Below, in pieces: positions 26,881 to 56,133 of a stretch of 64,000 bases of DNA. The first letter of the stretch is position 1. Every line of letters begins with the position of its first letter. The position numbers and the translations under genes are program-made. The DNA is from Bifidobacterium breve (GTDB taxonomy: Bacteria > Actinomycetota > Acidimicrobiia > Acidimicrobiales > Ilumatobacteraceae), in assembly GCA_945862545.1 (NCBI GenBank), contig CAMAYS010000001.1, positions 34,394-98,393 of the forward strand, in the 5' to 3' direction. The notes beneath the pieces are model-generated. The model saw only the letters and a list, made by a program, of their open reading frames with translations, had not been told where the DNA came from and did no database searches.

Positions 26881-26894
26881 TGACGATTGTGTCA
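26881..26894. promoter_or_regulatory. motif 1 dyad TGACGATTGTGTCA
   Basis: Perfect TGAC-N6-GTCA, 39 nt upstream of ATG 26934 (crotonase/Rieske operon). Identical 14-mer to the one at 35220. Confidence 0.45.
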
Positions 26895-27707: not shown

Positions 27708-27795
27708 AGAAATCTTGACTTAGTCGGTGGACTTTGTGATGCGCAATCGCGCGCTATTCCAACAAATTTTTGCAAATCAGAAGGTGGAAAACGAG

Positions 27796-29615: not shown

Positions 29616-29724
29616 GGGATGATGGACGCAGATTCTTTGAAAAGACACTTGTGGTAGGTGAAAGATGCGTGAGATGCTCTTACTACGCGAAGAGCTTTCA
29701 TGCTGGCGCTATGGGGGTACAAGA

Positions 29725-32015: not shown

Positions 32016-34250
32016 TTATTTTGAGATAGTGGCGAAGAGTTCATCAGCACCTCGTTCAAAAACGATTCGCCCCAGGCGCCGCCGCCAACTTTGGGTGCCT
32101 CCGACCTCATGGCGCCATGACCACAAGCGACGCGTGAATTGGTGCAGTGAATACTCGCGTGTCACACCCATTGCGCCGTGGGCTTGATGAGCAGCACGTG
32201 TGCCGAGAGCGATTGCATCGTCAATCACGATCCGAGCGGCAGCGATTTCGATTTCAAATGAACCATCATTGAGCGAACCCAAGGCGACGTCCACGGCCAT
32301 TCTGGCTTGAACAGCCGATTGCGCGATGGTGACTAGATGATGTTGGACTGCTTGGAAACTGGCGACCGGCTTACCAAACTGGTGCCGGCTATGCGTGTAG
32401 TCGAGGGTCATTTGCAAGATTGTTTCTAAGGCGCCTGCTGACATAATGAGTCGAGCCAAGACCGCCCGTGCTTCTAATTCGGATAGGGCTTGTTCCAGTT
32501 CTGGTCCGCTAGGCAGGTGAACGGTGCGGATTGATGTGATCTCTGCATCAATACATACTGAGTCAAGAGCCTCGCCAGCGAGGTTGCTCCCTACGGTGGT
32601 GACAAAGTTTTCTGAATCAATCGCCAAGATGAGTAGCCCATTATCAGTGCGCAGATTAAGAACTAATGTCTCACAGTGGCGAGCCCAGGGAACCTGCGCA
32701 CTGACTTTGATACGACCGTTGCTGATCGACGCCGTGGTCTGTGCACTGTTGGTTGGAATCAAGGCCATCGGACCATGCGCTAATGGCAATCCAAAACGGG
32801 TCAACCACCATCCAGCGATAAATCCGGTTTCAGCGACTGGTACGGGTGCTGCACTGCGACCAAGAGCGAACAGGACAGCAGCCATGTCTTGTGTCGTTCC
32901 TCCGCTACCTCCATGAGACTCATCAATGCCGACCCAGGTGAAGCCAGAAGCGCACAGTGCATTCCAAATAGTCGATGACCAACCTGTTTGTTCAGCGTTT
33001 TCAATTTCTTGGTGTGTTGCTAACGAGGCCAGCAAGCGGTCCACAGTCTCAATAAGTATTGGATCAACTCCGGAGATCGGTCGTACGTCGCCGTGTTGCA
33101 ACCCTTTGGAAATAACGGAGCGGAGAATTTCGTTGGTGCCTCCGCGAATCGTGAATGATGGCTGGGTGAGAGCACTCGTGACTAACAGTTGGTTAAAGAT
33201 TGAAGAATCCGAGATATTGGGGACTTGATCTACATGAGACAAGACAGCAAGAACGACATCCTGCTCAAAATGCGTTCCGAGTTCTTTGACAAGCGAAGCT
33301 TCGAGAGCAGGAGCACCACCGTTATCAATGGAGCGGGCGACTGAAATTGAAAGGTGGTGAAGAATCCAATAGTGAGCCACACAACTTCCTAGTAGGTCAA
33401 GAAGTTCTGTCGGCACAGATTCTGAATCGAAGCGTTCTGTTTCTTGGCGAAGTAGTTCTTCAATCAGCAAATACGAACTGAGCCAACGATCTGGCCCGCC
33501 TCTTTCGTAAGCCAACTCTGAAGTGTTCTGACTCCAACCCTGACCAATTTCTCCTAAAACAAATTCGTCAGGGACAAAGACTGAGTCAAACACAACTTCA
33601 CAGAAATCAGCCGTGCCATCAATAAATGGGACTTGGCTAGTGGTGATTCCGGGGGATTTCAGGTCCACGATTAATTGCGACATTCCATTTCGCTTGTCGC
33701 TCACTTGATCGCTCGGTGTTGTGCGACACAGGACGATGATCCAGTCATTCTCATGAGCCGCGGTCGTCCAAATCTTGCGCCCCTCAAGTACCCAGCCTCC
33801 GTCGATTCGAGTGGCTTTGGTGGAAAGTGAGGCGAGGTCACTTCCACTTTCAGATTCGCTCATACCAATGCAAAAAGACAATTCACCACTGCAAATTCTT
33901 GGGAGAAATCGTCGTTTTTGCTCTTCGGTTCCGAATTTGTTGATGACTGGACCTGATTGACGATCGGCAACCCAATGATGTCCGATTGGGGCACCCCAGC
34001 GCAACAGTTCTTCAACAATGATGAATCGTTCAACGGCTGATCGATTATGGCCTCCGTAAGCGACGGGTAGACCCATTCCTAGCCACCCACGTTTGCCGAG
34101 TTCACGGGAGAAACCTGGATCTTTGATTGCATTCATGCCAAGCCCAGGCGTGAAACTATGTCGTGGCAATGCGCTGTTGAGAAATGATCGGATATCGTCG
34201 CGCAGTTCGCGTTCACCGAGAGTGAGATTGACTGCTTCAAAGTTCATCAT
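32016..34250 (-). CDS. fused double acyl-CoA dehydrogenase (alpha-like N-half + beta-like C-half)
   Basis: 744-aa ORF. The N-half has MSESESGSDLASL, GRKIWTT, GGTNEILRSVISKGL. The C-half has a second ACAD C-terminal helical domain (HSRHQFGKPVASFQAVQHHL..., GAMGVTREYSLHQFTRRLW). Confidence 0.8.
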   Translation of the reverse strand: MMNFEAVNLTLGERELRDDIRSFLNSALPRHSFTPGLGMNAIKDPGFSRELGKRGWLGMGLPVAYGGHNRSAVERFIIVEELLRWGAPIGHHWVADRQSGPVINKFGTEEQKRRFLPRICSGELSFCIGMSESESGSDLASLSTKATRIDGGWVLEGRKIWTTAAHENDWIIVLCRTTPSDQVSDKRNGMSQLIVDLKSPGITTSQVPFIDGTADFCEVVFDSVFVPDEFVLGEIGQGWSQNTSELAYERGGPDRWLSSYLLIEELLRQETERFDSESVPTELLDLLGSCVAHYWILHHLSISVARSIDNGGAPALEASLVKELGTHFEQDVVLAVLSHVDQVPNISDSSIFNQLLVTSALTQPSFTIRGGTNEILRSVISKGLQHGDVRPISGVDPILIETVDRLLASLATHQEIENAEQTGWSSTIWNALCASGFTWVGIDESHGGSGGTTQDMAAVLFALGRSAAPVPVAETGFIAGWWLTRFGLPLAHGPMALIPTNSAQTTASISNGRIKVSAQVPWARHCETLVLNLRTDNGLLILAIDSENFVTTVGSNLAGEALDSVCIDAEITSIRTVHLPSGPELEQALSELEARAVLARLIMSAGALETILQMTLDYTHSRHQFGKPVASFQAVQHHLVTIAQSAVQARMAVDVALGSLNDGSFEIEIAAARIVIDDAIALGTRAAHQAHGAMGVTREYSLHQFTRRLWSWRHEVGGTQSWRRRLGRIVFERGADELFATISK

Positions 34251-34275
34251 CTCATGTGCGCGATCACTCTTGATG

Positions 34276-35175
34276 TCAGCTGACTTCGGACATCTTGGTA
34301 CGCGGTTTTGCTTGGGCTAACAAAGAACGAATCACACCATCAATCTCCAGTGGGTCAAGTGGCGGATCTGTGATATGCGGTCCGCGTGTCCAGCCTTGAG
34401 CGATTCCGAGTAGTTGTCCGGAGGATTCAATGACTTGACCAGTGACATCAGATGACTGAGACGAGGCCAGCCAAGCGATGACTGGGGCGACCCACTCGGG
34501 TCCAAAGCGCTCAAGCATTTCTGACGGGAGTGCTAAGTCTTCAGTGAGGCGGGTGAGTGCACCTGGAGCGACAGCATTGCAAGTCACGCCGTAACGGACT
34601 AATTCTTCGGCAGCGATCAGAGTGAAAGTCGCGATGCCAGCTTTAGCGGCCCCGTAGTTGCTTTGCCCTGGATTGCCGTACAGACCCGAGACTGACGTTG
34701 TGTTGATGATTCTGGCATCGTTCTTGAGACCCTCTTTGGAGCGATTGCGCCAATACTCCGATGCCACTCGACTAGATGCCCATGTGCCCTTAAGGTGCAC
34801 CTTGATGACCATATCCCACTCTTCTTCGCTCATTGAGAACAACATCCGATCGCGCAAGATACCAGCGTTGTTCACCACGACATCAAGACCACCGAATGTG
34901 GAAATGGCTAATTCGACCATGGCCGTGGCATCGGCGAGAGAACTGGCATCACCTAAGTGCGCTACAGCCTGACCACCACTCGCAGTTATCTCGTCAACGA
35001 CGTCTTGGGCGGGGTTGCTTCCATGTGTCGCTGTGCCGTCGCGGGCTCCACCAAAATCGTTGACAACGACTTGGGCTCCCTGATTGGCGAGCAGTCGAGC
35101 ATATTCACGCCCGATACCACGCCCAGCACCCGTGATAGCAACTATTCGTCCTTGGCATATTTTGTTATTTGTCAT
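34276..35175 (-). CDS. SDR, MFE-2/Hsd4A-type (3R)-hydroxyacyl-CoA dehydrogenase-like
   Basis: 299-aa ORF. ITGAGRGIGREYA, VVVNDFGGARDG, NNAGILRD, YGAAKAG. Confidence 0.8.
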   Translation of the reverse strand: MTNNKICQGRIVAITGAGRGIGREYARLLANQGAQVVVNDFGGARDGTATHGSNPAQDVVDEITASGGQAVAHLGDASSLADATAMVELAISTFGGLDVVVNNAGILRDRMLFSMSEEEWDMVIKVHLKGTWASSRVASEYWRNRSKEGLKNDARIINTTSVSGLYGNPGQSNYGAAKAGIATFTLIAAEELVRYGVTCNAVAPGALTRLTEDLALPSEMLERFGPEWVAPVIAWLASSQSSDVTGQVIESSGQLLGIAQGWTRGPHITDPPLDPLEIDGVIRSLLAQAKPRTKMSEVS

Positions 35176-35219
35176 GATCCGACCCTATTCGCCAACAGCG
35201 CTCATTTTGAAGCCGAACA

Positions 35220-35233
35220 TGACGATTGTGTCA
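35220..35233. promoter_or_regulatory. motif 1 dyad TGACGATTGTGTCA
   Basis: Identical 14-mer to 26881, 44 nt upstream of ATG 35175 (MFE-2-type SDR). Confidence 0.45.
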
Positions 35234-35261
35234 AGTCCAGCGCAATGGTTCAGTCAGTTGG

Positions 35262-36095
35262 TCAGGCACTGCGCTGACGGATGCTCTTGTGCTGCCTCAT
35301 GACCGATGTTTGGCTTACATTTCCGAGCAACGTTCCGCTCTCTGACCACAGACTTGCGCTGCCATGGCCAAAACCGTTAGCGACTTGATGAACCCGTATG
35401 GAGATCAATACCCATTCAGTGGGGACGAGAGTGCCGATGCGAATTGTGTTGTCAAGACTATTGCCAGCGAATGGGGCACCAATAGCATCAGCGAATCCGA
35501 GTGGCATGAAGTCACCGATAAAGGCAATGTCGGAAGATGTCACCATTCGAGATCCTTCCCAGCACTTGACCCACAGGGCGAATGAGCCATCACCTTTATT
35601 CTTTGATATAGCGATGTCATCAAGTTGTCGGCCATGAGCAAGACGGAAATCACTGAGGTCACCTAGATGTCCAGCCCCCCGTTCGAAAAATCGGTAGCGC
35701 GGGCAGTCATTGGGAGCAGCGACGGTGAGCGGTTGGTCCCATTGGTCATCCATGGTGGTGTCACGACTACCCATGGCCGCGTGGGTAGTCAAGATTTCTT
35801 GGCCTGATCGGGATAAAACGCAGCGCACCTGGCTTGTGTTATAGCCACTCACTTCAACGTTGACATCGATGTTCAGTGATTCAGTTCCTGGAGCGAACGA
35901 CAGGTACTGTGCCGTGGCCCAGATAGTTGGTCGTCCAGTAACAATTTCCATAGCGGCTGTTGTTGCTCCGAGACCAGCGCCCCCTTGCAAGGTACCCGCT
36001 GGCGTGAGAAGCACCGAGGCCGGGGTCCAATGAAATCGCTTGCCACCATCGGGGAGGTCATCGACGGTATCAAAATTGAAATGATCAATAGCCAT
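35262..36095 (-). CDS. acyl-CoA thioesterase II (TesB)-like double-hotdog protein
   Basis: 277-aa ORF. Pattern LQGGAGLGATTAAME... and C-terminal HQVANGFGHGSASLWSESGTLLG resembles TesB-type thioesterases. Assignment by eye only. Confidence 0.6.
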   Translation of the reverse strand: MAIDHFNFDTVDDLPDGGKRFHWTPASVLLTPAGTLQGGAGLGATTAAMEIVTGRPTIWATAQYLSFAPGTESLNIDVNVEVSGYNTSQVRCVLSRSGQEILTTHAAMGSRDTTMDDQWDQPLTVAAPNDCPRYRFFERGAGHLGDLSDFRLAHGRQLDDIAISKNKGDGSFALWVKCWEGSRMVTSSDIAFIGDFMPLGFADAIGAPFAGNSLDNTIRIGTLVPTEWVLISIRVHQVANGFGHGSASLWSESGTLLGNVSQTSVMRQHKSIRQRSA

Positions 36096-36101
36096 ATTGT
36101 G

Positions 36102-36785
36102 TCAACGTGGCGTGGAATTGGAAGATGTGCTTCGGGGGCTTGACCAGATCACCTGTGCGGCCTGCTCGATTGCATCTGCACGCGCGATGCGCCCATCATA
36201 GAGACCCGAGTAAAACCACAATCTTTCAAGAAGTGCAACAATTGTCAAGCCAAGTATTTCTGGTTGCTCAAGCGTTTTGTTAGAGGCTTTTGAGAGCGCG
36301 CCGGAAAGTGAACGACATATTTTGAGGTGACGCTTCATTCCCGCAAGACGAATTTCTTCGTCATTCTGCGCGGCTTGAGTCCAGGCAAAAGCGAAAGCTC
36401 CGTGGACATCTAGAAAGGAGAAATATTTGCTCACCCATTGGGTCGTTCCGATGCGCGTGCGACCTAAGTCAGCGAGCTCATCAATCAACGCTGTGACTTC
36501 TTGAGCGCTATGTGCCCCTACGGCTAAAAGCACCTCGCGTTTTGTGGGGAAGTAGGTATAGAACGAAGCACGTGATACCTCGGCGATACGAGTGATCTCG
36601 TCAATGGTCGTTCCTGCATAGCCGTGGGTCAGGAAGACCTCTCGCGTGGCTTCAACAATTCGCATAATCGTATGCTGAGCACGGGGTCCTAACTCTTGAG
36701 CCGGCTGGCGCAAAGAGGCTGGAGGAAGAAATGCTCCGATTCCATTGGTTATTGATTTCTCTACAGACTTTTGGGCTCTGACCAT
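36102..36785 (-). CDS. TetR-family transcriptional regulator
   Basis: 227-aa ORF. HTH IMRIVEATREVFLTHGYAGTTIDEITRIAEVSRASFYTYFPTKREVL. A near-consensus TGAC-N6-GTCA dyad lies 6 nt upstream of its ATG. Confidence 0.85.
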   Translation of the reverse strand: MVRAQKSVEKSITNGIGAFLPPASLRQPAQELGPRAQHTIMRIVEATREVFLTHGYAGTTIDEITRIAEVSRASFYTYFPTKREVLLAVGAHSAQEVTALIDELADLGRTRIGTTQWVSKYFSFLDVHGAFAFAWTQAAQNDEEIRLAGMKRHLKICRSLSGALSKASNKTLEQPEILGLTIVALLERLWFYSGLYDGRIARADAIEQAAQVIWSSPRSTSSNSTPR

Positions 36786-36791
36786 AGTTAT

Positions 36792-36805
36792 TGACGATAC
36801 TGTTA
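36792..36805. promoter_or_regulatory. motif 1 dyad, one mismatch (TGACGATACTGTTA)
   Basis: 6 nt upstream of the ATG (36785) of TetR gene 36102..36785. Confidence 0.35.
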
Positions 36806-36868
36806 AGTGGCTGATAACCCACTAAAGAGAGCGCCGATTATCGTCGAATTGAAGTGACCGTTGATGAC

Positions 36869-37213
36869 TTAGGTATTCGGTACTTTGTATTTGGATCCAT
36901 CCCAGTAATCGCGATTCGCGCATATTTTGCCTTCGGCCAATGAGCCAATAGAAACGCCGGCTACACCCATGGGGTGCATAATCCATTCAATTGCATAATC
37001 AGTGTCAGTGCTGTGGTGCCCGATGTATTCGAAGCGTGCGTCGGGGACGTTGTGAAACGAGGCTTCAATGAAACGACGCATATTTTTAGCTCCCTTAGCG
37101 CCGTGACCGATGGTTGTGTCATGGTATTCAATATCGTCGGTAAAAAAAGCCATTACTTGATCAACATCAAGGGTCTCCCATGATGCAAGGTATTCGCTGA
37201 AAAAGTTAGACAT
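36869..37213 (-). CDS. NTF2-like / SnoaL-like (ketosteroid-isomerase-fold) small protein
   Basis: 114-aa ORF. Size and pattern (YLASWETLDVDQVMAFFTDDIEYHDTT...RDYWD) typical of the SnoaL/NTF2 fold. Confidence 0.6.
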   Translation of the reverse strand: MSNFFSEYLASWETLDVDQVMAFFTDDIEYHDTTIGHGAKGAKNMRRFIEASFHNVPDARFEYIGHHSTDTDYAIEWIMHPMGVAGVSIGSLAEGKICANRDYWDGSKYKVPNT

Positions 37214-37246
37214 ATGCCCCCCGTTGTTTAGTTGTTTAATACTAAG

Positions 37247-38461
37247 TCACGGCTCTTTAGGTAAACCGAGAATATTTTCGGCGATGATATTGCGTTGAAT
37301 TTGTGATGTTCCTGCATAGACCGTTCCGCTTCGAGCATTCATGAGGGTGACATCGATCCAGGAGTTGCTGGAGTTTGCTGCACCAGGTTCGTCGGCTCGA
37401 AAGTGTTTTAATGGCTTACGCCCTTCGCGAACCATGGCCCGTGCACCTAGTAACTCCAAAGCTAGATCCGCTGCCCTTTGGTGATATTCACTCCAATAAA
37501 GTTTTGAAATGGAGGCAGCTGGTCCAATTTTCCCTTCATGGATAATCTGCGTGAGGATGCGATACCCAAGAAAGCGCATCGTCTCCACCTTCATGTGACA
37601 CCAAGCGATACGGTCTCTGATGACTGGGTCATTGATCCGCCCTACCTCGCGCGCTAATGAAATGATCCGATCAAGTTCAGCTCGGAAAAATATTGGATTA
37701 GTAGCGGCCTCTTCACCTCGTTCAAGACCGAGAAGACTATTGGCCACCTTCCAGCCTTCATTTATCGGACCCAACGTATTCTTTATTGAAACGCGGGCAT
37801 TGGTGAAGAAAACCTCACAGAACTCGTCGTCCCCAGTGAGGGTTCGGATTGGGCGCACTTCAACGCCGGAATGCGGCAGCGGACAGAGTATGAAGGTGAT
37901 GCCACGATGTTTCGGGGCATCGGGATCTGTTCTTGCCAAAAGAAAAATGCCTGTGCCTTGTAGACCGCAGGATGTCCATATTTTCTGACCGTTAATCACC
38001 CATTCATCTCCGTCACAAACGGCATGAAGTTTGATGCTTGCCAAATCAGATCCCGAGTCAGGTTCGCTGTACCCCTGCACCCAGGTGTCCTCGCCCGAGA
38101 CGATACGTGGTAAATACTTAAGCTTTTGTTCTTCGGTCCCCCAATGAACAAGGGTATTTCCTAACATTTTGACGCTGGTGGTATCTGGGACACGATAAAC
38201 AGGGACTCCAGCTTTAGCGAACTCTTCGGCAAGTACCACTTGTTCAATTTTTGAGCGTCCTTGCCCGCCGTATTCCTTGGGCCATGTAATGCCGATCATT
38301 CCATTCTTGGCCAGAACGTCGCGCCAGTGCTCTATGAAGAGATACGAATCTTGGCGTTCAAGCGCTCCCAGCCCGTGCCAGTCGGCGGGAAGATTGGCCT
38401 TGAGAAATGCGCGCACCCGAATGCGAAACTCCTCTGCTTCGGGGGGAAACTTCAGATCCAT
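37247..38461 (-). CDS. acyl-CoA dehydrogenase
   Basis: ORF track 37247..38542. ATG 38461 avoids overlap with the upstream gene (MDLKFPPEAEEFRIRVRAFL...). YSEPDSGSDLASI, GQKIWTS, GTSQIQRNIIAENILGLPKEP. Confidence 0.85.
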   Translation of the reverse strand: MDLKFPPEAEEFRIRVRAFLKANLPADWHGLGALERQDSYLFIEHWRDVLAKNGMIGITWPKEYGGQGRSKIEQVVLAEEFAKAGVPVYRVPDTTSVKMLGNTLVHWGTEEQKLKYLPRIVSGEDTWVQGYSEPDSGSDLASIKLHAVCDGDEWVINGQKIWTSCGLQGTGIFLLARTDPDAPKHRGITFILCPLPHSGVEVRPIRTLTGDDEFCEVFFTNARVSIKNTLGPINEGWKVANSLLGLERGEEAATNPIFFRAELDRIISLAREVGRINDPVIRDRIAWCHMKVETMRFLGYRILTQIIHEGKIGPAASISKLYWSEYHQRAADLALELLGARAMVREGRKPLKHFRADEPGAANSSNSWIDVTLMNARSGTVYAGTSQIQRNIIAENILGLPKEP

Positions 38462-38483
38462 AGTTTCGCAGCTTGCTGCAGTT

Positions 38484-39434
38484 TCATAGGGCACCAATTC
38501 GAGGAACCACTCGAGTCGCTTGGAGGCGATCTCCGATTTCATGTTCTAAGGTACGCCAATCTCCGAATTCGCGATCGAGGATATAAACCCGTCGGAGATA
38601 TCGGTGAAATTCGTGTTCCCAGGTAAAGCCGATCGCTCCGTAACATTGCTGAACTTGTGTGCAAGCATTTTCGGCGGCACGACCGGCGAGACATTTAGCC
38701 ACTAGGGCGGTCCATTCGTCCCCTTGTTCGGCCGCTTCAGTAGCCAAGTTTCCCGCGCCGACAACAAGGCAATGAGCGCTCGCCAAACGATGTTGTAGAG
38801 CCTGAAAAACGCCGATCGGTTTTCCGTACTGAACGCGCTGGGCGGTGTATTCGACGGCCGAGGCAACGACATGTCGTCCAATACCAACGAGTTCGGCGGC
38901 GATCATTCGACGTCCTGCTGCAACAACGGCAGTACTCGCTTCGGTGCTCAGTCGTGCGACAGATGCAATGGGCACCTCACCGTGGACAAGTCGGCGATTT
39001 GCCGAATCATCGGTTCCTTGCAGCGGCGAAATAGTTAGATGAGATGAGGCACAGGTGGACAACTGTTCGCCGGTGAAAAATATGACCTGTGACCCGAGAT
39101 TCGTTGCGCTCGTGACACCTTCAACTTTGACGGTATCTCCCGAAGTCCGCGGATTGCTCAAAGGAGAGGGAAGCAAAATGCTGTGATTAGGCCCAACACT
39201 TGGGTCAGTGAGTGAAGCCACTCGTACCAACTCTGGTCCTAAAGCATCCACGCTTGAGAGTGTTTCACCTTTGATTTCAAATAGCACTCGAAGAGCTGTG
39301 GCTGCGTCAACCTTGAGGACCTCTTCCCATCCGAGTTCTTCAAGGCGCCTGACGAATGACTCGTTGTGCCCTTCGCGCATGAGGGCATGGAGGCTAATGC
39401 GCAACATATCGAGGGTGTCCTGATCAAGTTTCAT
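38484..39434 (-). CDS. acyl-CoA dehydrogenase beta-like subunit (no obvious catalytic base or N-terminal FAD motifs)
   Basis: ORF track 38484..39551. ATG 39434 lies 5 nt after the stop of the upstream ACAD (MKLDQDTLDMLRISL...). C-terminal ACAD helices QRVQYGKPIGVFQALQHRL and GAIGFTWEHEFHRYLRR. Confidence 0.75.
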   Translation of the reverse strand: MKLDQDTLDMLRISLHALMREGHNESFVRRLEELGWEEVLKVDAATALRVLFEIKGETLSSVDALGPELVRVASLTDPSVGPNHSILLPSPLSNPRTSGDTVKVEGVTSATNLGSQVIFFTGEQLSTCASSHLTISPLQGTDDSANRRLVHGEVPIASVARLSTEASTAVVAAGRRMIAAELVGIGRHVVASAVEYTAQRVQYGKPIGVFQALQHRLASAHCLVVGAGNLATEAAEQGDEWTALVAKCLAGRAAENACTQVQQCYGAIGFTWEHEFHRYLRRVYILDREFGDWRTLEHEIGDRLQATRVVPRIGAL

Positions 39435-39439
39435 CACGT

Positions 39440-40576
39440 TTAACCTCTCGGCATTCCAAGAACGCGCTGCGCGACTAGGGTTCGCTGAATTTCTTGCGAA
39501 CCACCATAAATTGGTGCTGCGCGGCTGAACATGAAGTCGTGCCTCAGCCAATCCAAGCTTGGGTCAACTTCAAAACGTTCGCCGAGGTGATATCTAATGG
39601 CATCCCACGCTGCTAGTTCAGCGTCAATGAGTAACAGTTTGTCGACTGAAACTTCGGGACCGAGGGACTCTTCGCGAGCAAGACATTCGACGGTGTGGCG
39701 TGTCTGTAATCGTAAGGCTGACATCAACGCATAAGCAGCGCCGATATCGGCCGAGTGACGCGGATTAGAGGAAGCGTTTTGGAGTGCTTGTTCCAACCTT
39801 TTGTGAAAACGACCTTGCTGCAACCAGCCCCAAGCACCGCGTTCCCATTGCAGCATGTACATCGCAACTTCCCACCCCTGACCGAGTTGGCCGATCACAC
39901 GATCTGCAGGAACGAAAGCTCCATCAAGGAAAATTTCTGAAAAATGATTCTCACCATCCTGTGCTGTGATCGGTCGCACCTCGGCACCTTCTTGATCTAC
40001 GTCAACGAGGACCATAGTGAGTCCTTTATGCCCTGGTCCGCCAGAACGTGCGAGTAAGACTGATCGATTTGATAAGTGCCCGAGAGTGGACCAAACCTTT
40101 TGACCGTATAGCCGATATCCATCTCCATCAGGCTCAAGGCGGGTTCGCAAACTAGCTAGGTCACTGCCAGCGTCGGGCTCGGAAAAGGCTTGCGACCAGA
40201 TGTCGTCGCCGCGGAGCAAACCGGGTAGCAATGTCTCGGCAAGATGCGGTGAGTACACCAACAAGACGGGTACCAGAATCTCGAGCGTGGTGTATGGCTC
40301 GGGGATCTGAATATCAAGGTCCCATAGCGTTTGAAACATGGCCGCGCGAAAGCGCGGGTCACCACCAAATCCACCGGCCTTCTCGGGCCAGCCGAGTCGT
40401 GACCAACCTGAATCAAAAAGTAAGGATTGCAATCCAGAGAGGTGTTTTGTGGAGGCTTCAAGACTTGGCGTGTGGTAACCGATGTAGGGAGTAGCTAATG
40501 GTTCTTGACTGAGAAAAATACGAAGCGCGTCACCATAAGCAGAAGGTGAATCAAACATTGACGCGTCGGGAATCAT
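39440..40576 (-). CDS. acyl-CoA dehydrogenase alpha-like subunit
   Basis: 378-aa ORF. FSEPDAGSDLASL, GQKVWSTLGH, GGSQEIQRTLVAQRVLGMPRG. Confidence 0.85.
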   Translation of the reverse strand: MIPDASMFDSPSAYGDALRIFLSQEPLATPYIGYHTPSLEASTKHLSGLQSLLFDSGWSRLGWPEKAGGFGGDPRFRAAMFQTLWDLDIQIPEPYTTLEILVPVLLVYSPHLAETLLPGLLRGDDIWSQAFSEPDAGSDLASLRTRLEPDGDGYRLYGQKVWSTLGHLSNRSVLLARSGGPGHKGLTMVLVDVDQEGAEVRPITAQDGENHFSEIFLDGAFVPADRVIGQLGQGWEVAMYMLQWERGAWGWLQQGRFHKRLEQALQNASSNPRHSADIGAAYALMSALRLQTRHTVECLAREESLGPEVSVDKLLLIDAELAAWDAIRYHLGERFEVDPSLDWLRHDFMFSRAAPIYGGSQEIQRTLVAQRVLGMPRG

Positions 40577-40588
40577 GTAAATCTCCTT

Positions 40589-41488
40589 TTAAGAACTGAG
40601 GTATGTCTGAGCAAACTCTCCAATGAAATTGGCAGCCATCGGATGGGGGCCTCGGGGACCAGACAACACCATCCAAGTCGCTCCGAGTTCAGCAATTCGT
40701 CCGAGTGTGTCACGGTGGCGTTCGACCTCCACTGAGGTTTCATAGATTGACGAATCCGAGTACGACAGAACGATGTCAAGGTTTGTAAATCGATCCCCAG
40801 CGAGTCGCTTGAGCATGTGTAATCGATCAACCACATCATCAACTGAAGTCATCGATGGAGAGCGCACGGTAGAGAACATCCCTTCGGGTCCGATCAGTGG
40901 CATCCATCCTTGAGCTCGTTCCGCAACACGACGAATCGTCAGTGAAGCATTGCCACCAATCCAGATTGGAATGGGTTGTTGTACCGGTCGCGGAAGACCG
41001 ATGGTGTCACGGCAACTGAAATGTGTACCTTGATAGTCAAAAGGTTTGCCTGCCCAATGCAGTGGCAAGACGTCAAGAGCTTCATCGAAAAGTACATTGC
41101 GTTCTTCAAAGTCCACGCCGAGAGCAAAGTATTCGGCTTTGAGATAACCGGTGCCCACCCCGAGGATAAAGCGACCGTTAGATAATTTGTCGACAGTGGC
41201 AGCGGATTTCGCTAGGGAGAGAGGGTTGCGGTAGGGGAGAACTGCCAGGTATGTGAGTAACTTCAGGCGACTGGTCACGGCGGCGACATGCGCCAGGGCA
41301 ACAAACGGATCGAGGCTTTGGTGACCACCAGTAGACAACCATTTTGCGGTCGGTGCTGGATGCTCGGTGAAGGAGAAGCCATCCCAGCCATGTGCTTCGG
41401 CCAAAATAGCGAGTTCTGATACTGGTCCAGCATCAAGCATGTCACCTTCTAAGCCGTTGAAATCGGGGTATTGAAAGATGAACTTCAT
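40589..41488 (-). CDS. LLM-class (probably F420-dependent) oxidoreductase
   Basis: 299-aa ORF. GWDGFSFTEHPAP, RFILGVGTGYLKAEYFALGVDFEERN. Confidence 0.8.
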   Translation of the reverse strand: MKFIFQYPDFNGLEGDMLDAGPVSELAILAEAHGWDGFSFTEHPAPTAKWLSTGGHQSLDPFVALAHVAAVTSRLKLLTYLAVLPYRNPLSLAKSAATVDKLSNGRFILGVGTGYLKAEYFALGVDFEERNVLFDEALDVLPLHWAGKPFDYQGTHFSCRDTIGLPRPVQQPIPIWIGGNASLTIRRVAERAQGWMPLIGPEGMFSTVRSPSMTSVDDVVDRLHMLKRLAGDRFTNLDIVLSYSDSSIYETSVEVERHRDTLGRIAELGATWMVLSGPRGPHPMAANFIGEFAQTYLSS

Positions 41489-41502
41489 AGAGAAACCTTA
41501 CT

Positions 41503-41516
41503 TGATACTTATGTCA
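41503..41516. promoter_or_regulatory. motif 1 dyad, one mismatch (TGATACTTATGTCA)
   Basis: 14 nt upstream of ATG 41488 (LLM/ACAD operon). Confidence 0.3.
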
Positions 41517-41601
41517 AGTTCTTCCTCGCCGAAGCTAGGTGAATGGCTTCAACCTGTTATTTTAAATTCACCATCGTGAAGTTGAGCGAAGTCTGTCGCC
41601 C

Positions 41602-42507
41602 TCAAGAAGGGGGTGGAGATCTGTAGTGCTGTAAAACCGATGATGGCAATATGTTGGAAAACCCCTCATCAGGCCAATTCAGCCAACCAGCTGAAGCGAA
41701 GGTACCACCGTCGGGATGCAAAGTCATTCCCGTCATATAGGACGATAGTCCTGATGCGAGGAAAATGACGGCGTTGGATATATCAGAGGGCGTTCCTAGT
41801 CGCCCCATGGGAACAGAAGTGTGAATATTTATTGGGTTAAGCATCGGATGACTTGACTCGGTGCTGCCGATACCCAGCATATTTGGAGTTGGTGCTAGGT
41901 CTGGTGCAACATTGTTGACCCGAATCCCCTCGGGTGCTAACTCAATAGCCAATGAACGCGCAAACTGAGCGACCGCTGCTTTAGCTGCCGAATACACGGC
42001 GAAGTTTGGTGCAGCGCGGTAACCCTCAATCGTTGTGATATTGATGATGCTCCCTGCGCGACCGCCGGCACGCATGGCAGGCACAGCGCGCGATGTGGCT
42101 TGGAGAACATGTGTCAGATTGGTGCGAATGAGAGCATCCCAGGCACGTTCACTTTGTTCGGTGAAAGCCCCCTTGAAGGTTCCGCCGACGACATTGACGA
42201 GTATGTCGAGGCGCTTCCATTTATCGGCGACAGCCTCGAAAAGGGCGTCAAGGTCATCTGATTTGTGGACATCTCCAGTGTGCACAATCGCCTCAACGCC
42301 GCGTGAAATGAGTTCTTTGGAAATACGCTTTGTGGCAGCCTCGTCGCGGTCAATAAGCGCGATGTTCACGCCGTTACTGGCCAGGTCAAGGGTAATAGCT
42401 TCACCAAGACCTCCAGCGCCCCCAGTGATGATCGCTGTCTTGCCGATCAGATTGGCGCGGTCCAACCACCATCGTCCCGATCGATCCTCTGCATCAACTT
42501 GGCTCAT
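41602..42507 (-). CDS. SDR family oxidoreductase
   Basis: ORF track 41602..42687. ATG 42507 is preceded by AGGAG (MSQVDAEDRSGRWW...). ITGGAGGLGEAI and YSAAKAA. Confidence 0.85.
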   Translation of the reverse strand: MSQVDAEDRSGRWWLDRANLIGKTAIITGGAGGLGEAITLDLASNGVNIALIDRDEAATKRISKELISRGVEAIVHTGDVHKSDDLDALFEAVADKWKRLDILVNVVGGTFKGAFTEQSERAWDALIRTNLTHVLQATSRAVPAMRAGGRAGSIINITTIEGYRAAPNFAVYSAAKAAVAQFARSLAIELAPEGIRVNNVAPDLAPTPNMLGIGSTESSHPMLNPINIHTSVPMGRLGTPSDISNAVIFLASGLSSYMTGMTLHPDGGTFASAGWLNWPDEGFSNILPSSVLQHYRSPPPS

Positions 42508-42540: not shown

Positions 42541-42554
42541 TGACATAATTGTCA
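42541..42554. promoter_or_regulatory. motif 1 dyad TGACATAATTGTCA
   Basis: Perfect TGACA-N4-TGTCA, centred in the 83-nt region between divergent SDR genes (ATG 42507 and ATG 42591). Confidence 0.45.
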
Positions 42555-42590: not shown

Positions 42591-43382
42591 ATGGACTTAC
42601 AGATGCGTGGCAAAAGGTTTCTGGTTGTGGGTGGAACAGCAGGCATTGGGCTCGCGGCAGCATCGGTCCTAGCCGCGGAGGGGGCAAGTATTGCTGTGAT
42701 TGGACGAAATCAGCAGCGACTTGATGAAGCAGTGGAGCATCTTTGTGTTGGGGCGACTTCAGAGGTATTCGGGGTGCGGGGTGATGTCAGCACTCATGCT
42801 GGAGCGCTCGATGCGGTTAATCGAGCGGTTGAATTTTTGGGAGGGCTTAACGGGGTGGCCATAACAACTGGTCTGATTGGTCATGAACCGATTGCCATTT
42901 CCGATGCTCGGTGGGTTGAAGTTTTCAGCGATGTTTTCATGGGTACCGTTCGCGTGGTGGAAGCTTGTCTGCCATATCTTGTGAGTACACAAGGCTCCAT
43001 TGTGACTACAGCCGCCTATTCAATTCGAGCACCAGAGATAGCTCGTCTTCCCTATGCATCAATGAAAAGCGCGGTCGCAACATTTACCAAGGGCATCGCC
43101 AAGGCCTACGGTCAGGAGGGTGTACGCGCTAACTGCGTGGCTCCTGGAGCGATTGAAACAGCATCCCTGACTGCTTTACGGCGCCATGTTTCAGAGACAA
43201 AAGGCATTCCGTATAACGAGGCCTTGGAGCGAGTGATGGTTGATGAATGGCATCTTGATATTGCGTTACAAAGACCAGGTCGCGCAACTGAGGTAGGAAA
43301 TCTCATCGCATTTGTTTTGTCTGATCTCGCCGCTTATATGACTGGAACATTGATCAATATTGATGGTGGGACAAACTTTTAA
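42591..43382 (+). CDS. SDR family oxidoreductase
   Basis: ORF track 42549..43382. ATG 42591 is preceded by GGAGGAG (MDLQMRGKRFLVVGGTAGIGLA...). YASMKSA. Confidence 0.85.
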   Translation: MDLQMRGKRFLVVGGTAGIGLAAASVLAAEGASIAVIGRNQQRLDEAVEHLCVGATSEVFGVRGDVSTHAGALDAVNRAVEFLGGLNGVAITTGLIGHEPIAISDARWVEVFSDVFMGTVRVVEACLPYLVSTQGSIVTTAAYSIRAPEIARLPYASMKSAVATFTKGIAKAYGQEGVRANCVAPGAIETASLTALRRHVSETKGIPYNEALERVMVDEWHLDIALQRPGRATEVGNLIAFVLSDLAAYMTGTLINIDGGTNF

Positions 43383-44688: not shown

Positions 44689-44705
44689 GTACGCGGGATA
44701 CTGCT

Positions 44706-47582: not shown

Positions 47583-47596
47583 TGACAGTAGTGTCA
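47583..47596. promoter_or_regulatory. motif 1 dyad TGACAGTAGTGTCA
   Basis: Perfect, 32 nt upstream of ATG 47629 (amidohydrolase paralog). Confidence 0.45.
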
Positions 47597-47628: not shown

Positions 47629-48885
47629 ATGAAGATTGAAGACATGATCATGGTCAGTATTGATGACCATGTGATCGAACCACCGGATGTGTTTGAGAAT
47701 CACATGCCCGAAAAGTACAAGGCCGATGGTCCAAAATTTGTGCGTCTTGAAAATGGGCTAGATCAATGGGTCTTCCAGGGTGAGGTGATGGGTACTACGG
47801 GTCTCGGAGCCGTGGCTTCATGGCCCCGAGATGAATGGAGTTTTGAGCCAGTCGGTCACGCAGAGATGCGTCCCGGTTGTTATGACATTCACGAACGCAT
47901 ACGCGACATGAATGCCAATGGAGTGCTTGCCTCAATCAACTTTCCAACTGCTTCAGGCTTTGCCGGCGCATGGTTAGCGGGCAAACCGGATAAAAAACTT
48001 GGAGCAATCGCGGTATCGGCATACAACGATTGGCAGATTGATGAGATCGCTGGACAGTATCCGGGACGAATAATTCCCATGGGCGTCGTTCCCCTTTGGG
48101 ACACCGATGCGTGTGTGCGTGAACTTGAACGCATCGCTGCTAAGGGATGCACCACTGTTTCATTTCCAGAAACTCCTTATTCCAATGGCTTGCCTGGTTT
48201 TTATGGAGATCACTGGGATTCTGTTTTGGAAGCGGCCGAGCGATTGGGCATTGTTTTGTCAATGCATATTGGTGGAGCATTTGGTTTGATCCAACGTCCC
48301 GAAGGTGCGCATATGGATCAACTGATCGTTTTATCAGCGCAGTTGTCTGGAATCGCGGCCACTGACTTGATCACTAGTGGCACGTTCAAAAAGTTTCCAA
48401 ATCTCAAGATCGCTCTCTCAGAAGGTGGCTTCGGGTGGGTTCCATTTTTGCTTGACCGCATGGATAAGCATATGTGGAACCAGTCATGGACCCATCTTGA
48501 TATTGGGGCCGAGACGGCCACGGAGATTTGGAAGAAGAATTTCTTGGCCTGCTTCATTACTGAGCCAACGACCTTGAGGGTATTAGATCGAATCGGTGTG
48601 GATACGGTCGCTTGGGAATGTGATTACCCGCATTCAGATTCAACCTGGCCGCATTCACCCGAAACTTTGATGAAAGAACTCGTAGCAGCAGATATTTCGG
48701 ATGAAGTTATCAACAAACTCACATGGGAAAACGCGTGTCGCTTTTACAACTGGGATCCGTTTAAAAATACGCCTCGCGAGTTGGCAACGGTGGGCGCGTT
48801 GCGCGCGCTGGCGACTGATGTAGATGTTTCAGAAACTCGCAAGGCTGTTTACCGCGAAAAGTATGCAGTGAAGATGGCTGGCTGA
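47629..48885 (+). CDS. amidohydrolase_2 family protein (paralog of 20399..21685)
   Basis: ORF track 47578..48885. ATG 47629 is preceded by GGGGAG. VSIDDHVIEPP, HERIRDMNANGVLASINFPT, MHIGG, ECDYPHSDSTWPHS. Confidence 0.85.
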   Translation: MKIEDMIMVSIDDHVIEPPDVFENHMPEKYKADGPKFVRLENGLDQWVFQGEVMGTTGLGAVASWPRDEWSFEPVGHAEMRPGCYDIHERIRDMNANGVLASINFPTASGFAGAWLAGKPDKKLGAIAVSAYNDWQIDEIAGQYPGRIIPMGVVPLWDTDACVRELERIAAKGCTTVSFPETPYSNGLPGFYGDHWDSVLEAAERLGIVLSMHIGGAFGLIQRPEGAHMDQLIVLSAQLSGIAATDLITSGTFKKFPNLKIALSEGGFGWVPFLLDRMDKHMWNQSWTHLDIGAETATEIWKKNFLACFITEPTTLRVLDRIGVDTVAWECDYPHSDSTWPHSPETLMKELVAADISDEVINKLTWENACRFYNWDPFKNTPRELATVGALRALATDVDVSETRKAVYREKYAVKMAG

Positions 48886-50943: not shown

Positions 50944-51088
50944 AGTGCAAACCTAGTTGACGGCGTTAGTGATTGATGCATATCTGTTTTCTCAAGAACG
51001 AAACGCTAAAGAAAGGTCTGCGTGAGCGCCTATGATTCGCAGAGTCAATATCGTTGTTCTGGATCGAATCAATCTTTGAGGAGCCGTT

Positions 51089-51895: not shown

Positions 51896-51909
51896 TGACA
51901 CTTGTGTCA
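51896..51909. promoter_or_regulatory. motif 1 dyad TGACACTTGTGTCA
   Basis: Perfect, 10 nt upstream of ATG 51920 (thiolase-crotonase operon). Overlaps a -10-like CAGAAT at 51908..51913. Confidence 0.45.
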
Positions 51910-51919: not shown

Positions 51920-53095
51920 ATGACCGAAGCTTTCATCGTTTCCGCTGCCCGCACCCCGATTGGTCGGGCTCACAAAGGTTCTCTGATAGATGTTGATGCC
52001 GCCCAGTTAGCGATGGTTGCTTTGAGTGGGGTGATTGAGCGCTCGGGTGTAGATCCCAAACTTATTGATGACATTGTATTGGCCGAGTCAATGCAAGGTG
52101 GCGGGGTCATAGCACGGTATGTGGCTAATAAACTTGGCCTCACGGATGTTCCTGGCTTGGCCAACAATCGCCATTGTGCTGCCGGCTTGAGTGCGATTCA
52201 GATTGGCGCCGCAAGTATTCGCGCCGGGATGGACACAATCGTCCTTGCTGGTGGAACTGAGAGTATTAGTTCGACTCCGATGCTGATGAAATCGGTTCCG
52301 GCATCTTCTCGTAATCCACAACAGTGGGCACCTGAATCTCATCCTGATTCACCGCAAGCGCCAGCATGGGATATGAGCATCACTGTTGGTGAGAACACGG
52401 CTCGCGAAGCTGGTGTGACACGCCTCCAATCAGACGAGTGGGCATTTCATTCGCATCAAAGGGCATTCGCTGCGGCCTCTAGTGGTCGGTTTGATGATGA
52501 GATTGTGCCCGTGGAAATTAGTGATGGTGAGGGTGGCACCAAGATGTTTCGACGCGATGAGCATCCTCGTGGTGATACAACCATGGAGCGACTAGGTGCA
52601 TTAAAACCCTTACACCCCGAGATCCCCAATGCGACGGTCACCTCTGGCAACTCTTCTGGGCTTAACGACGCGGCTGCTGCAGTCATGATGATGAGTGATC
52701 AAGCCGTTCGTGCGCATGGCATCAAGCCGCTGGCACGAGTGGTTTCATGGGCCTCTGTCGGGATTGACCCTGTGTTGACAGGGTTGGCTCCAACCCGTGC
52801 CATTCCCAAGGCTTTGATGCGCGCTGGCATGGAACTTGGAGATATCGACCTTTTTGAAATCAATGAGGCTTTTTGCTCTATGGCTGTTGCTTCAACGCGC
52901 ATCCTTGGCATTGATCACTCGATTGCTAATGTCAACGGCTCGGGGTGTGGGCTTGGTCATCCGATCGCTGCTACAGGCGCGCGGATGGTGGTGAGCATGA
53001 TCCACGAATTACAAAAGCGCGGTAAAAGTGTTGGTTGTGTTGCTATGTGTGCTGGCGGTGGAATGGGTTCCGCTCTTGTTCTGGAATTGTTATGA
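51920..53095 (+). CDS. acetyl-CoA C-acyltransferase (classical FadA-type thiolase)
   Basis: ORF track 51902..53095. ATG 51920 gives MTEAFIVSAARTPIGRAHKGSL. NRHCAAGLSA (Cys nucleophile), NGSGCGLGHPIAATG, CAGGGMG. Confidence 0.9.
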   Translation: MTEAFIVSAARTPIGRAHKGSLIDVDAAQLAMVALSGVIERSGVDPKLIDDIVLAESMQGGGVIARYVANKLGLTDVPGLANNRHCAAGLSAIQIGAASIRAGMDTIVLAGGTESISSTPMLMKSVPASSRNPQQWAPESHPDSPQAPAWDMSITVGENTAREAGVTRLQSDEWAFHSHQRAFAAASSGRFDDEIVPVEISDGEGGTKMFRRDEHPRGDTTMERLGALKPLHPEIPNATVTSGNSSGLNDAAAAVMMMSDQAVRAHGIKPLARVVSWASVGIDPVLTGLAPTRAIPKALMRAGMELGDIDLFEINEAFCSMAVASTRILGIDHSIANVNGSGCGLGHPIAATGARMVVSMIHELQKRGKSVGCVAMCAGGGMGSALVLELL

Positions 53096-53868
53096 CAGTG
53101 GCCGATGACATCGGTCGCCACGACGCCGACGGCATTATCACCTTGACTTTCACAAGAGATCAAAAGTTGAATGCGGTAACTGACGAGATGCTCGATGTCA
53201 TTCGCCAAGCAGTTCGGGACCTTGGAGATTGGGAATCGAATCGGGCCCTCATTATTACTGCTCAGGGTCGTTACTTCACTGCCGGTAAGGACATTGGTGA
53301 AATGGGAGCACAACCCGAATCTGGGGTCGCACTGCGACACAACTATCGTCGCCTGCACGAACTCTTTGACGAAATGGAACGACTTGAAAAGCCTGTCATT
53401 ATTGCCGCTCAGGGACCATGCCTCGGCATTGGCGTAGAGATGGCCTCATCATGCGATTTCAGATTTGCGAGTGAAAAAGCCATCTTTGGATTGCCCGAGG
53501 TGGCAAATCTTGCAGTATTGCCTGGTTCGGGGGGCATCAGCAGGTTTACGCGTCTCGTGGGACCACATTGGGCTCGTTGGGTTGCTGTGGCCGGAGAAAA
53601 CGTTTCTGCAGAATTGGCGCTGACGATGGGATTTGTTCATCAGGTATTGCCCGAAGAAGGTTTTCACGAAACAGTGCAGGCTTGGACGCGAAAGTTGATT
53701 TCCTTTTCTGCCGAGGCAATTGGCCTCGGCTTTATTGCTATTGATGCTGCTGTTGACAGTGATCGCCGGACTGCGCGACACATTGATCGGATGGCTAACA
53801 CTCATTTGATGCACACCCAAGAACACCTCGATAAAATTGCGAAGTTTCAAAAGCGAGTGGCGCGCTAA
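53092..53868 (+). CDS. enoyl-CoA hydratase/isomerase family protein
   Basis: ORF track 53035..53868. ATG 53092 forms an ATGA overlap with the thiolase stop. YFTAGKDIG and IAAQGPCLGIGVEMASSCDFRFAS. Confidence 0.85.
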   Translation: MTVADDIGRHDADGIITLTFTRDQKLNAVTDEMLDVIRQAVRDLGDWESNRALIITAQGRYFTAGKDIGEMGAQPESGVALRHNYRRLHELFDEMERLEKPVIIAAQGPCLGIGVEMASSCDFRFASEKAIFGLPEVANLAVLPGSGGISRFTRLVGPHWARWVAVAGENVSAELALTMGFVHQVLPEEGFHETVQAWTRKLISFSAEAIGLGFIAIDAAVDSDRRTARHIDRMANTHLMHTQEHLDKIAKFQKRVAR

Positions 53869-54927: not shown

Positions 54928-54941
54928 TGACAGATATGTCT
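54928..54941. promoter_or_regulatory. motif 1 dyad, one mismatch (TGACAGATATGTCT)
   Basis: Overlaps ATG 54936 of the kinase-like gene, in the 18-nt divergent gap with the LLM gene. Confidence 0.3.
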
Positions 54942-56119: not shown

Positions 56120-56133
56120 TGACACTGATGTCG
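56120..56133. promoter_or_regulatory. motif 1 dyad, one mismatch (TGACACTGATGTCG)
   Basis: 104 nt upstream of ATG 56238 (ABC substrate-binding protein). Confidence 0.3.

Follow-up and report, generated by a model that had tools for sequence, protein, structure and literature searches.

A predicted palindromic operator and its probable TetR-family regulator in an acyl-CoA gene cluster of Acidimicrobiia

The window analysed here is a 64-kb stretch (51% G+C) of contig CAMAYS010000001.1, in which about 56 densely arrayed genes are given over to CoA-thioester chemistry and a 14-bp dyad, TGAC-N6-GTCA, recurs in the gaps before start codons. The enzymes encoded comprise AMP-ligases, acyl-CoA dehydrogenases (ACADs), enoyl-CoA hydratases, short-chain dehydrogenases/reductases (SDRs), thiolases, type III CoA-transferases and Amidohydro_2 proteins, together with SCP-x-type thiolases with DUF35 partners, a KshA-like Rieske oxygenase, a VOC dioxygenase-like protein, two kinase-like proteins, one ABC importer and F420-type luciferase-like oxidoreductases (LLMs), for which TIGR03619 and TIGR03857 pass their cut-offs. 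Three regulators are encoded among them: a GntR-FCD protein (3603–4337), a TetR-family protein (15115–15729) and, on the minus strand, a second TetR-family protein of 227 aa, here called TetR2 (36102–36785), which is the proposed binder of the dyad.

The dyad, its full extent and its conservation

The repeated 14-bp dyad is real. Exact TGAC-N6-GTCA occurs 11 times in the window, against 1.29 ± 1.04 expected from dinucleotide-preserving shuffles (n = 100, none of which reaches 11), and copies with at most one mismatch number 57 against 30.5. Every 4-mer dyad with spacers of 0–12 was counted as well, so that the pattern given at the outset was not the only one tested; TGAC with a spacer of 6 ranks first (11 versus 1.9 expected, Poisson p = 5.6e-6), and GACA-N4-TGTC, in second place, is the same element in a shifted register. 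The over-representation asserted in an earlier note on this DNA, made from the sequence by eye, is thus borne out, and the coordinates and sequences of the 12 sites it listed are all correct. It had placed seven perfect copies in non-coding DNA, and seven exact copies do lie in promoter gaps after refinement of start codons against paralogues, although four further exact copies within coding sequence (10617, 17188, 49475 and 60659) had been missed. The latter are without the inner R..Y bases and the flanks of the other sites, and score no more than 8.3 with a matrix derived from other genomes. The distances it gave, 5–105 nt upstream of a start codon or overlapping one, become 6–104 nt or overlap with the refined starts, for all 12 sites.

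In the aligned sites the symmetry, which had been suspected to extend into the flanks, reaches 20 bp, roughly ACTTGACA-N4-TGTCAAGT, with the palindromic consensus ACTTGAC-R-n-T-A-n-Y-GTCAAGT, of which the 14-bp dyad is the core. A matrix trained on the seven exact intergenic copies only (the window matrix) scores the untrained site at 41503 at 20.8, level with the exact sites; the best non-training matches thereafter are 36792 (13.4) and 54928 (13.3), and those at 56120 (11.6) and 61369 (10.7) fall within the shuffle range (mean maximum 13.7). An independent matrix of 22 bp, refined on other genomes only (220 sites, consensus AACTTGACAGTACTGTCAAGTT), finds ten matches scoring at least 12 in the window versus 0.57 in shuffles, nine of them in promoter gaps, and six scoring at least 20 versus none in shuffles. 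Outside these nine sites and one coding match at 21923, the rest of the window scores no higher than 8.3. The best score per promoter gap is bimodal, at least 12 or at most −1.9, with the exceptions of 54928 (6.4), 56120 (5.4) and 61369 (1.0); by score alone these three are at background level, yet they stand above every site-free gap.

The extent of the pattern is narrower than first proposed. The promoter gaps in the first part of the window (1–21.6 kb) hold nothing resembling the operator, with best scores of −2 to −15 by the independent matrix, and the divergent gaps at 44689–44705 and 50944–51088, inside the covered part, are also without a site. The earlier note's picture of one regulon therefore stands, whereas its description of the dyad as cluster-wide, or as spanning a whole supercluster, overstates the extent. 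Likewise, of the "at least 12" promoter regions that it counted, nine are robust and three (54928, 56120 and 61369) carry degenerate copies.

Conservation was assessed in 80 loci from other species (L011–L090; up to 20 kb each, 1.21 Mb in total, 60–71% G+C), which were fetched by way of an alignment of 36 TetR2 homologues and encode TetR2 homologues 35–63% identical to that of the window. They contain 185 exact dyads, against 25.0 ± 5.6 in shuffles, and the flanks of these sites repeat the window consensus (A at −2, C/G at −1, T at 0), as do the inner positions (R at 5, TA at 7–8, Y at 10). When open reading frames were labelled by BLAST against the window proteins, only 10 of the 185 dyads fell in homologue-supported coding cores, though such cores make up 53% of the DNA. 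Dyads lie upstream of homologues of TetR2 (24), of two Amidohydro_2 enzymes (22 and 9), of the SDR behind site 35220 (19), of the enoyl-CoA hydratase behind site 26881 (16), of the LLM behind site 41503 (12), of ACADs (11) and of the ABC binding protein (7), mostly 5–90 nt from the predicted start. A spacer-controlled dyad scan, run separately on loci whose TetR protein is at least 55%, 46–55% or less than 46% identical, places the operator palindrome first in all three bins, each time in one of its registers (TGAC-N6, TTGA-N8, CTTG-N10 or ACTT-N12; z = 13–31). Conservation at orthologous promoters, on which the original proposal depended, is thus present throughout this range, and the contrast between coding and intergenic DNA that it implied is seen both in the window (nine of the ten high-scoring matches in promoter gaps) and elsewhere. 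Together these comparisons support the dyad as the predicted operator of a single regulon, confined to promoter gaps and conserved upstream of orthologous genes. In ten population variants of the window (L001–L010; 99.1–99.9% identical) 59 of 60 site copies are unchanged; their divergence is too low and their kinship too close for this identity to be counted as evidence.

Gene order in the 80 loci varies along the window. The central block (32016–42507), comprising the SDR, fused ACAD, thioesterase, TetR, SnoaL, three ACAD and F420-LLM genes, is most often syntenic with the TetR gene (LLM in 38, SDR in 35 and fused ACAD in 33 of the 80), and the outer units are variable, which suggests a regulon with a conserved core and a species-specific periphery.

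Sites and predicted units

The sites are described from left to right, with scores from the independent matrix unless stated and distances to the refined start codon. An exact copy, TGACATTACTGTCA (21708–21721; 24.7), stands 22 nt upstream of the ATG of an amidohydrolase gene (20399–21685, minus strand), nine orthologues of which have sites. About 215 bp away, within an alpha/beta-hydrolase gene (21726–22466, minus strand), lies the coding match mentioned above, a one-mismatch copy gtgtTGACGACATCTTCAagta (21923–21936; 12.9), which is either the one false positive to be expected or an auxiliary site. Two exact copies follow: TGACGAATAAGTCA (26705–26718; 21.5) is 41 nt upstream of a VOC-led unit that runs from 26663 to 21726 on the minus strand (VOC, DUF35-thiolase, SCP-x thiolase, AKR and hydrolase genes), VOC orthologues in L045 and L074 also having sites, and TGACGATTGTGTCA (26881–26894; 24.4) is 39 nt upstream of a plus-strand unit from 26934 to 31998 (enoyl-CoA hydratase, KshA-like Rieske, hydrolase and two CaiB genes), with 16 sites upstream of orthologues that are 53–82% identical. 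The same letters as at 26881 recur at 35220–35233 (exact, 24.0), 44 nt upstream of a minus-strand unit of an SDR (34276–35175) and a fused ACAD (32016–34250); here 19 sites precede orthologues of up to 80% identity, typically about 2.3 kb downstream of the TetR start.

The putative autoregulatory site, TAACAGTATCGTCA in gene orientation (36792–36805; one mismatch, 16.3), ends 6 nt before the ATG of TetR2. The site TGATACTTATGTCA (41503–41516; one mismatch, 20.7), inside the near-perfect 20-bp palindrome ACTTGATACTTATGTCAAGT, is 14 nt upstream of a unit of F420-type LLM, three ACAD and SnoaL genes (41488 to 36869, minus strand); it equals the exact copies in quality, and LLM orthologues are preceded by 12 sites. 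An exact copy TGACATAATTGTCA (42541–42554; 20.8) occupies the divergent gap between two SDR genes (41602–42507, minus strand, and 42591–43382, plus strand). On the plus strand, TGACAGTAGTGTCA (47583–47596; exact, 12.1) precedes an amidohydrolase gene (47629–48885) by 32 nt, much as a site in L027 precedes an orthologue of 79% identity by 30 nt, and TGACACTTGTGTCA (51896–51909; exact, 14.8) lies 10 nt upstream of a unit of thiolase (51920–53095) and enoyl-CoA hydratase.

The three remaining sites each have one mismatch. The copy TGACAGATATGTCT (54928–54941; 6.4, and 13.3 by the window matrix), weak and probable as an operator, lies in an 18-bp gap between an F420-type LLM gene (53865–54917, minus strand) and a kinase-like gene (54936–56036, plus strand), whose ATG it overlaps; it is supported by a perfect site in the divergent gap between the orthologous LLM (57%) and kinase (47%) genes of L076. 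The start codons of the two genes are only 18 bp apart (54917 and 54936), an arrangement kept in L076, so that these genes would have to be either leaderless or transcribed from promoters within each other's coding sequence. A weak, possible operator, TGACACTGATGTCG (56120–56133; 5.4), is 104 nt upstream of the gene for an ABC substrate-binding protein (56238–57602, plus strand), and is backed to some degree by sites that precede binding-protein homologues in L037, L038, L060 and L061 (40–46% identical) and in L064 (25%). The last, TGACAATCTAGTCT (61369–61382; 1.0), is a doubtful operator 70 nt upstream of an SDR gene (61453–62310, plus strand) and rests mainly on its flank, in that the exact 10-mer ATTTCTGACA is common to 56120 and 61369. 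The flank tTC-TGACA is common among the half-sites of the window species and rare in other genomes, which means that the matrix built on other genomes under-scores these two sites.

Candidates for a canonical steroid pathway among the regulated enzymes were rejected: no equivalog passes (EchA19, 168 versus a cut-off of 400; IpdE2, 85 versus 450), the steroid thiolase equivalog included (231 versus 515).

TetR2 and its predicted mode of action

TetR2 contains a TetR_N domain (PF00440, 3.9e-14, residues 43–89), and its AlphaFold2 model consists of nine helices (predicted local distance difference test score (pLDDT) of 86). At E ≤ 1e-3 the model is matched by 82 TetR-family structures in the PDB, best by FasR–DNA, KstR and FadR; by sequence the nearest solved structure is EthR, with similarity confined to the N-terminal, DNA-binding half. 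More than 400 homologues are found at E ≤ 1e-10, the best 120 of which are 53–65% identical, one 98% cluster aside, and the named sources among these 120 are all metagenome-assembled genomes of Acidimicrobiia, Ilumatobacteraceae or Actinomycetota; the identical protein is present on many metagenome contigs of the same species. Across the 36 aligned homologues the helix-turn-helix, GTTIDEIARVAxVSRASFYTYFPSKREVL, is almost invariant, as is a short N-terminal stretch, RQPAxxLGPRAQRT. The whole segment that precedes the helix-turn-helix (residues 19–40, F-L-x-P-A-x-x-R-Q-P-A-x-x-L-G-P-R-A-Q-R-T) is nearly invariant in the family, and the leader before it (residues 1–18) is variable and disordered, with pLDDT below 50. 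Residues 19–40 could form an arm that touches the DNA and so account for the base conservation beyond the 14-bp core.

None of the curated families reaches its cut-off for TetR2. KstR (NF033703) scores 18.1 bits against a cut-off of 280, FasR (NF053731) 41.7 against 330, RutR 26.6 against 368 (TIGR03613) and 20.1 against 230 (NF011584), and FadR 25.5 against 200; MftR and BetI are likewise far below their cut-offs. A more distant homologue, 40% identical, is encoded on a contig binned as Gammaproteobacteria (L082; 68% G+C), where the residue aligned to the TetR2 start is preceded, at about 95 nt, by a perfect TGACGTTTCTGTCA (5222–5235); either this contig is mis-binned or the TetR2 family reaches beyond Actinomycetota.

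It is most likely TetR2, rather than another factor, that binds the predicted site. No fewer than 13 loci with an exact dyad have a site placed 2–8 nt ahead of the orthologue's start codon, and tolerance of one mismatch adds further loci (an example is actTGACAGTATCGTCAagtccATG); the sites in this position read actTGACAGTAACGTCAtgtctATG in L011, cCGACAGTATCGTCAagtccATG in L020 and L030, TGACAGTATCGTCAacttgATG in L031 and TGACACTAACGTCAtgtcatcATG in L040–L042. The earlier note had put forward all three regulators of the window as candidates; TetR2 is favoured among them, the other two being rare in the 80 loci (homologues of TetR 15115–15729 in 4, of GntR 3603–4337 in 2) and lacking any site close by in the window. 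The near-invariance of the recognition helix across the TetR2 family points the same way. The same logic of the regulator-proximal site, the classical signature of autoregulation, linked KstR2 to its motif (PMC3068626), and the assignment of TetR2 follows that analogy, short of proof. Taken as a whole, we consider it probable that a TetR2 dimer binds the 20-bp operator, represses at least nine units and is released by an acyl-CoA intermediate.

In the proposed mechanism, the dimer would place one helix-turn-helix on each half-site of the 20-bp operator, and the operators would lie on or next to the core promoters of no fewer than nine units at 21.7–52 kb and probably of two or three more as far as 61.4 kb. 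The genes controlled would be those for acyl-CoA dehydrogenases, enoyl-CoA hydratases, SDRs, thiolases, F420-type LLMs, Amidohydro_2 enzymes, the KshA-like Rieske protein and CoA-transferases, and perhaps the ABC importer. Because the site ends 6 nt before its own start codon, TetR2 would also shut off itself and the gene behind it, which encodes an acyl-CoA thioesterase-like protein (35262–36095, minus strand; Pfam 4HBT_3C, 2e-14), begins 6 nt past the TetR2 stop and is probably co-transcribed; homologues of this gene occur in 15 of the 80 loci. If KstR, KstR2, FasR and FadR are a guide, the repressor would leave its operator on binding an acyl-CoA intermediate of the pathway. This ligand class is suggested by the fact that every regulated unit handles CoA thioesters, by the thioesterase gene that follows TetR2 and by the nearest folds, which are acyl-CoA sensors. 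The nine strong sites lie 6–44 nt from start codons, where a bound dimer would block RNA polymerase; judged from site position only, repression is therefore the likely mode.

When −10 elements were read by eye with the actinobacterial TANNNT rule, several operators were seen to include or adjoin a −10 or a −35-like hexamer, as in TTGGAC-N18-TAATGT at 21708, TTGACG-N18-TAGTGT at 47583 and TTGACG-N17-TAGTCT at 61369. A consensus site with a TA centre necessarily carries TAnnGT on both strands. The site at TetR2 leaves no space for a ribosome-binding site, and TATCGT ends 6–8 nt before the start codon, which fits a leaderless mRNA whose −10 element (TAnnGT) would lie inside the operator. A central TA is present in 20 of the 29 sites within 10 nt of a start codon and in 46 of the 116 others (p = 0.006).

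Several observations weigh against this reading. The fold matches of TetR2 are 17–23% identical with template-modelling scores of 0.6–0.7, a level that is generic for TetR proteins. The 80 loci were collected through TetR2, so that its co-occurrence with the motif is partly by design, and about one-third of its orthologues, apparently inside operons, have no site directly upstream. In a reverse scan of metagenomes for CTTGAC-NN-TA-NN-GTCAAG (CTTGACNNTANNGTCAAG), which returned at least 120 stretches from all kinds of taxa (22–76% G+C), only one of the 120 listed, L185, has the TetR2 family (220 bits, with the site upstream of the SDR orthologue), and the other 119 are other systems or chance matches. 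The palindrome class is evidently used by many other factors, and only in combination with its R..Y inner bases, flanks and genomic context does the motif become diagnostic. Three of the sites first claimed, 54928, 56120 and 61369, are degenerate at best. As to the promoters, their overlap with the operator depends on the by-eye TANNNT reading and on the central-TA enrichment, which is modest and drawn from phylogenetically non-independent cases; a scan for E. coli-type promoters over 21.5–41.4 kb found 11 promoter-like matches versus 16.4 in shuffles and none at the sites in the right orientation.

If the operator is genuine, a regulator other than TetR2 might still bind it, be it TetR 15115–15729, GntR-FCD 3603–4337 or a factor from outside the window, with TetR2 merely one of the regulated genes. 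The built-in co-occurrence and the third of orthologues that are without an upstream site would both suit such a binder, as would the similar TTGAC-N6-GTCAA palindromes beside unrelated TetR genes in L130, L141, L165 and L180; yet the scarcity of the other two regulators in motif-enriched loci, the absence of a site near either gene and from the surrounding 21 kb, and the constancy of the site position relative to the TetR2-family start over 40–63% protein identity make it unlikely. That TetR2 binds but activates, as FasR does for fas, we regard as very unlikely. FasR–DNA is the best structural match and also the best, though far sub-threshold, NCBIfam match, and two sites, 56120 and 61369, do lie 70–104 nt upstream of their starts. 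Most strong sites, however, lie within the 6–44 nt given above, several of them overlapping −10-like or −35-like hexamers or the start codon, positions at which a bound dimer would occlude RNA polymerase, and the characterized catabolic TetR regulons, those of KstR and KstR2, are repressed and negatively autoregulated (PMC3068626).

Two further explanations would do without a DNA-binding regulator of this kind. In 5′ leaders the extended 8 + 4 + 8 palindrome could fold into an RNA hairpin (8-bp stem, 4-nt loop) that acts as a processing site, protein-binding site or attenuator, and several copies do lie between plausible promoters and start codons. In the 185 sites, however, the variable mirror positions pair no more often than independent halves would (107 observed versus 114.8, 71 versus 77.3, 80 versus 80.4 and 124 versus 120.7), A5 with C10, a mismatch, is among the commonest combinations, and the stem bases are invariant instead of covarying. 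Such independent variation of mirror positions argues for a DNA site read by a symmetric dimer and not for a hairpin; moreover, the divergent-gap sites 42541 and 54928 serve both strands, and the copy at TetR genes, ending 2–8 nt before the start, leaves no room for a ribosome-binding leader. We thus give the hairpin hardly any credence, and no more to the idea that the dyad consists of promoter elements only, either two TTGACA-like −35 hexamers or a by-product of the AT-rich composition of intergenic DNA. Read with its flank, the half-site (cTTGACA) does match the canonical sigma-70-type −35 hexamer exactly, and TAnnGT at the centre looks like an actinobacterial −10, but both halves and the exact 6-bp spacing are kept in unidirectional contexts in genomes of 60–71% G+C, the same half-sites do less well with any other spacing (z = 13–31, as above), promoter gaps at 1–21.6 kb show nothing similar, and no −35 element could act from 2–8 nt before a start codon.

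Repression by TetR2 from the 20-bp operator could be taken further, and much more tentatively. The TetR2 family might be the lineage-wide master switch of an acyl-CoA pathway in uncultured Acidimicrobiia, and the TAnnGT at the operator centre might at the same time be a leaderless −10, both together being possible and, in our view, rather doubtful. The pathway would bring together F420-dependent LLMs, Amidohydro_2 enzymes, KshA-like oxygenases and ACADs, its substrates perhaps being alicyclic or terpenoid-like organic matter, not sterols; at the TetR2 gene and at several ACAD and LLM genes, one stretch of six base pairs would be contested by repressor and sigma factor. If this were true, the 20-bp operator would delimit the full pathway genome by genome.

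Known systems and further palindromes

Several features generic to TetR repressor systems are present: a TetR_N helix-turn-helix, an all-helical ligand domain, inverted repeats in promoter gaps and a predicted operator at the regulator's own promoter. The closest parallels are KstR and KstR2, TetR repressors of cholesterol catabolism in Mycobacterium and Rhodococcus (PMC3068626 and PMC5348764). As in those systems, a TetR regulator is encoded inside a large lipid or acyl-CoA catabolic cluster, many of the cluster's promoter gaps, that of the regulator included, share a 14-bp inverted repeat, motif and regulon are conserved across a whole actinobacterial lineage, and the enzyme classes correspond (ACAD pairs, enoyl-CoA hydratases, an SCP-x thiolase with DUF35, KshA-like Rieske and F420 LLM proteins). 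Differences include the operator sequence and the host, which belongs to Acidimicrobiia and not to Mycobacteriales. The KstR operator, quoted as TnnAACnnGTTnnA in PMC5348764, has two matches in the window against 0.79 expected, both in coding sequence and none in promoter regions, and the KstR2 operator, AnCAAGnnCTTGnT (PMC3068626), has no match in the window. The earlier note was thus right to set the dyad apart from both, the two KstR matches being attributable to chance.

In geometry, the dyad resembles the operator of McbR, an actinobacterial TetR repressor of a multi-operon regulon in Corynebacterium glutamicum, quoted in PMC2723105 as TAGAC-N6-GTCTA. The GAC-N6-GTC frame is identical, with 5-bp half-sites, and the resemblance is one of operators only: in the sequence as quoted there, the base 5′ of GAC is A (here T, as TTGAC-N6-GTCAA) and the flanks differ, and McbR acts on sulphur metabolism in response to S-adenosylhomocysteine. 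The best fold and sequence matches to TetR2, namely FasR (6o6p/6o6n), the Bacillus and Thermus FadR proteins (3whb/3whc and 3anp) and EthR, have a ligand class, long-chain or steroid acyl-CoA, that fits the chemistry of every regulated unit; FasR differs in being an activator, and its fold match 6o6p is only 20% identical. The box of E. coli RutR, TTGACCAnnTGGTCAA, shares the outer frame TTGAC-N6-GTCAA and differs in its inner bases (CA..TG, here R..Y) and in that RutR regulates pyrimidine metabolism. Many of the metagenome matches to the extended pattern are of the TGACC..GGTCA type seen in the RutR box.

Among the papers searched for the motif in several notations, none gave a bacterial TetR operator of this sequence; the strings matched only in work on plant WHIRLY/ERD15, on CopR and on GraR. 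The proposed switch would be of an ordinary kind, a KstR-like TetR repressor with its operator regulon, and an undescribed example of it. For a specialist in TetR proteins the mechanism itself is unsurprising; the value of a lineage-wide regulator–operator pair is practical. Sea water, lakes, glacier-fed streams and soils all harbour abundant Acidimicrobiia, most of them uncultured, and sequence by itself does not suffice to place the paralogous acyl-CoA enzymes of their large clusters in pathways. An operator that is conserved offers an independent guide, readable in the genome, to which ACAD, enoyl-CoA hydratase, SDR and amidohydrolase paralogues cooperate, much as the KstR motif grouped the cholesterol genes of mycobacteria. 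The pair is also directly testable, being one protein and a 20-bp oligonucleotide, and could be used to screen acyl-CoA ligands and so identify the substrate.

The same class of operator seems to be used by a second TetR clade. Near-identical palindromes, (A)TTCTTGAC-R-n-TA-n-Y-GTCAAG, lie directly upstream of different, mutually related TetR genes (MVGARQFDEQEVIA...) in L130 (480–497), L141 (480–497), L165 (1108–1125) and L180 (357–374); the proteins score 17–22 bits against the TetR2 profile and match no curated family.

Within the window, a second candidate operator, unrelated to the dyad, is found in the part without promoter-gap copies of it. A 22-bp perfect AT-rich palindrome, ATTAAATAGGTTACTATTTAAT (9177–9198), overlaps another, TATTTAATTGGTCTTAAATA (9191–9210), in the divergent gap between an ACAD gene and a HAD-AMP-ligase gene. 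The 10-mer AAATAGGTTA repeats exactly, on the other strand, in the divergent AMP-ligase/ACAD gap (2321–2330), and 61337–61346 is a further position of interest; there are two exact occurrences and five with at most one mismatch versus 1.4 expected. The palindromes at 9177–9210 may be a site of GntR-FCD 3603–4337 or of TetR 15115–15729.

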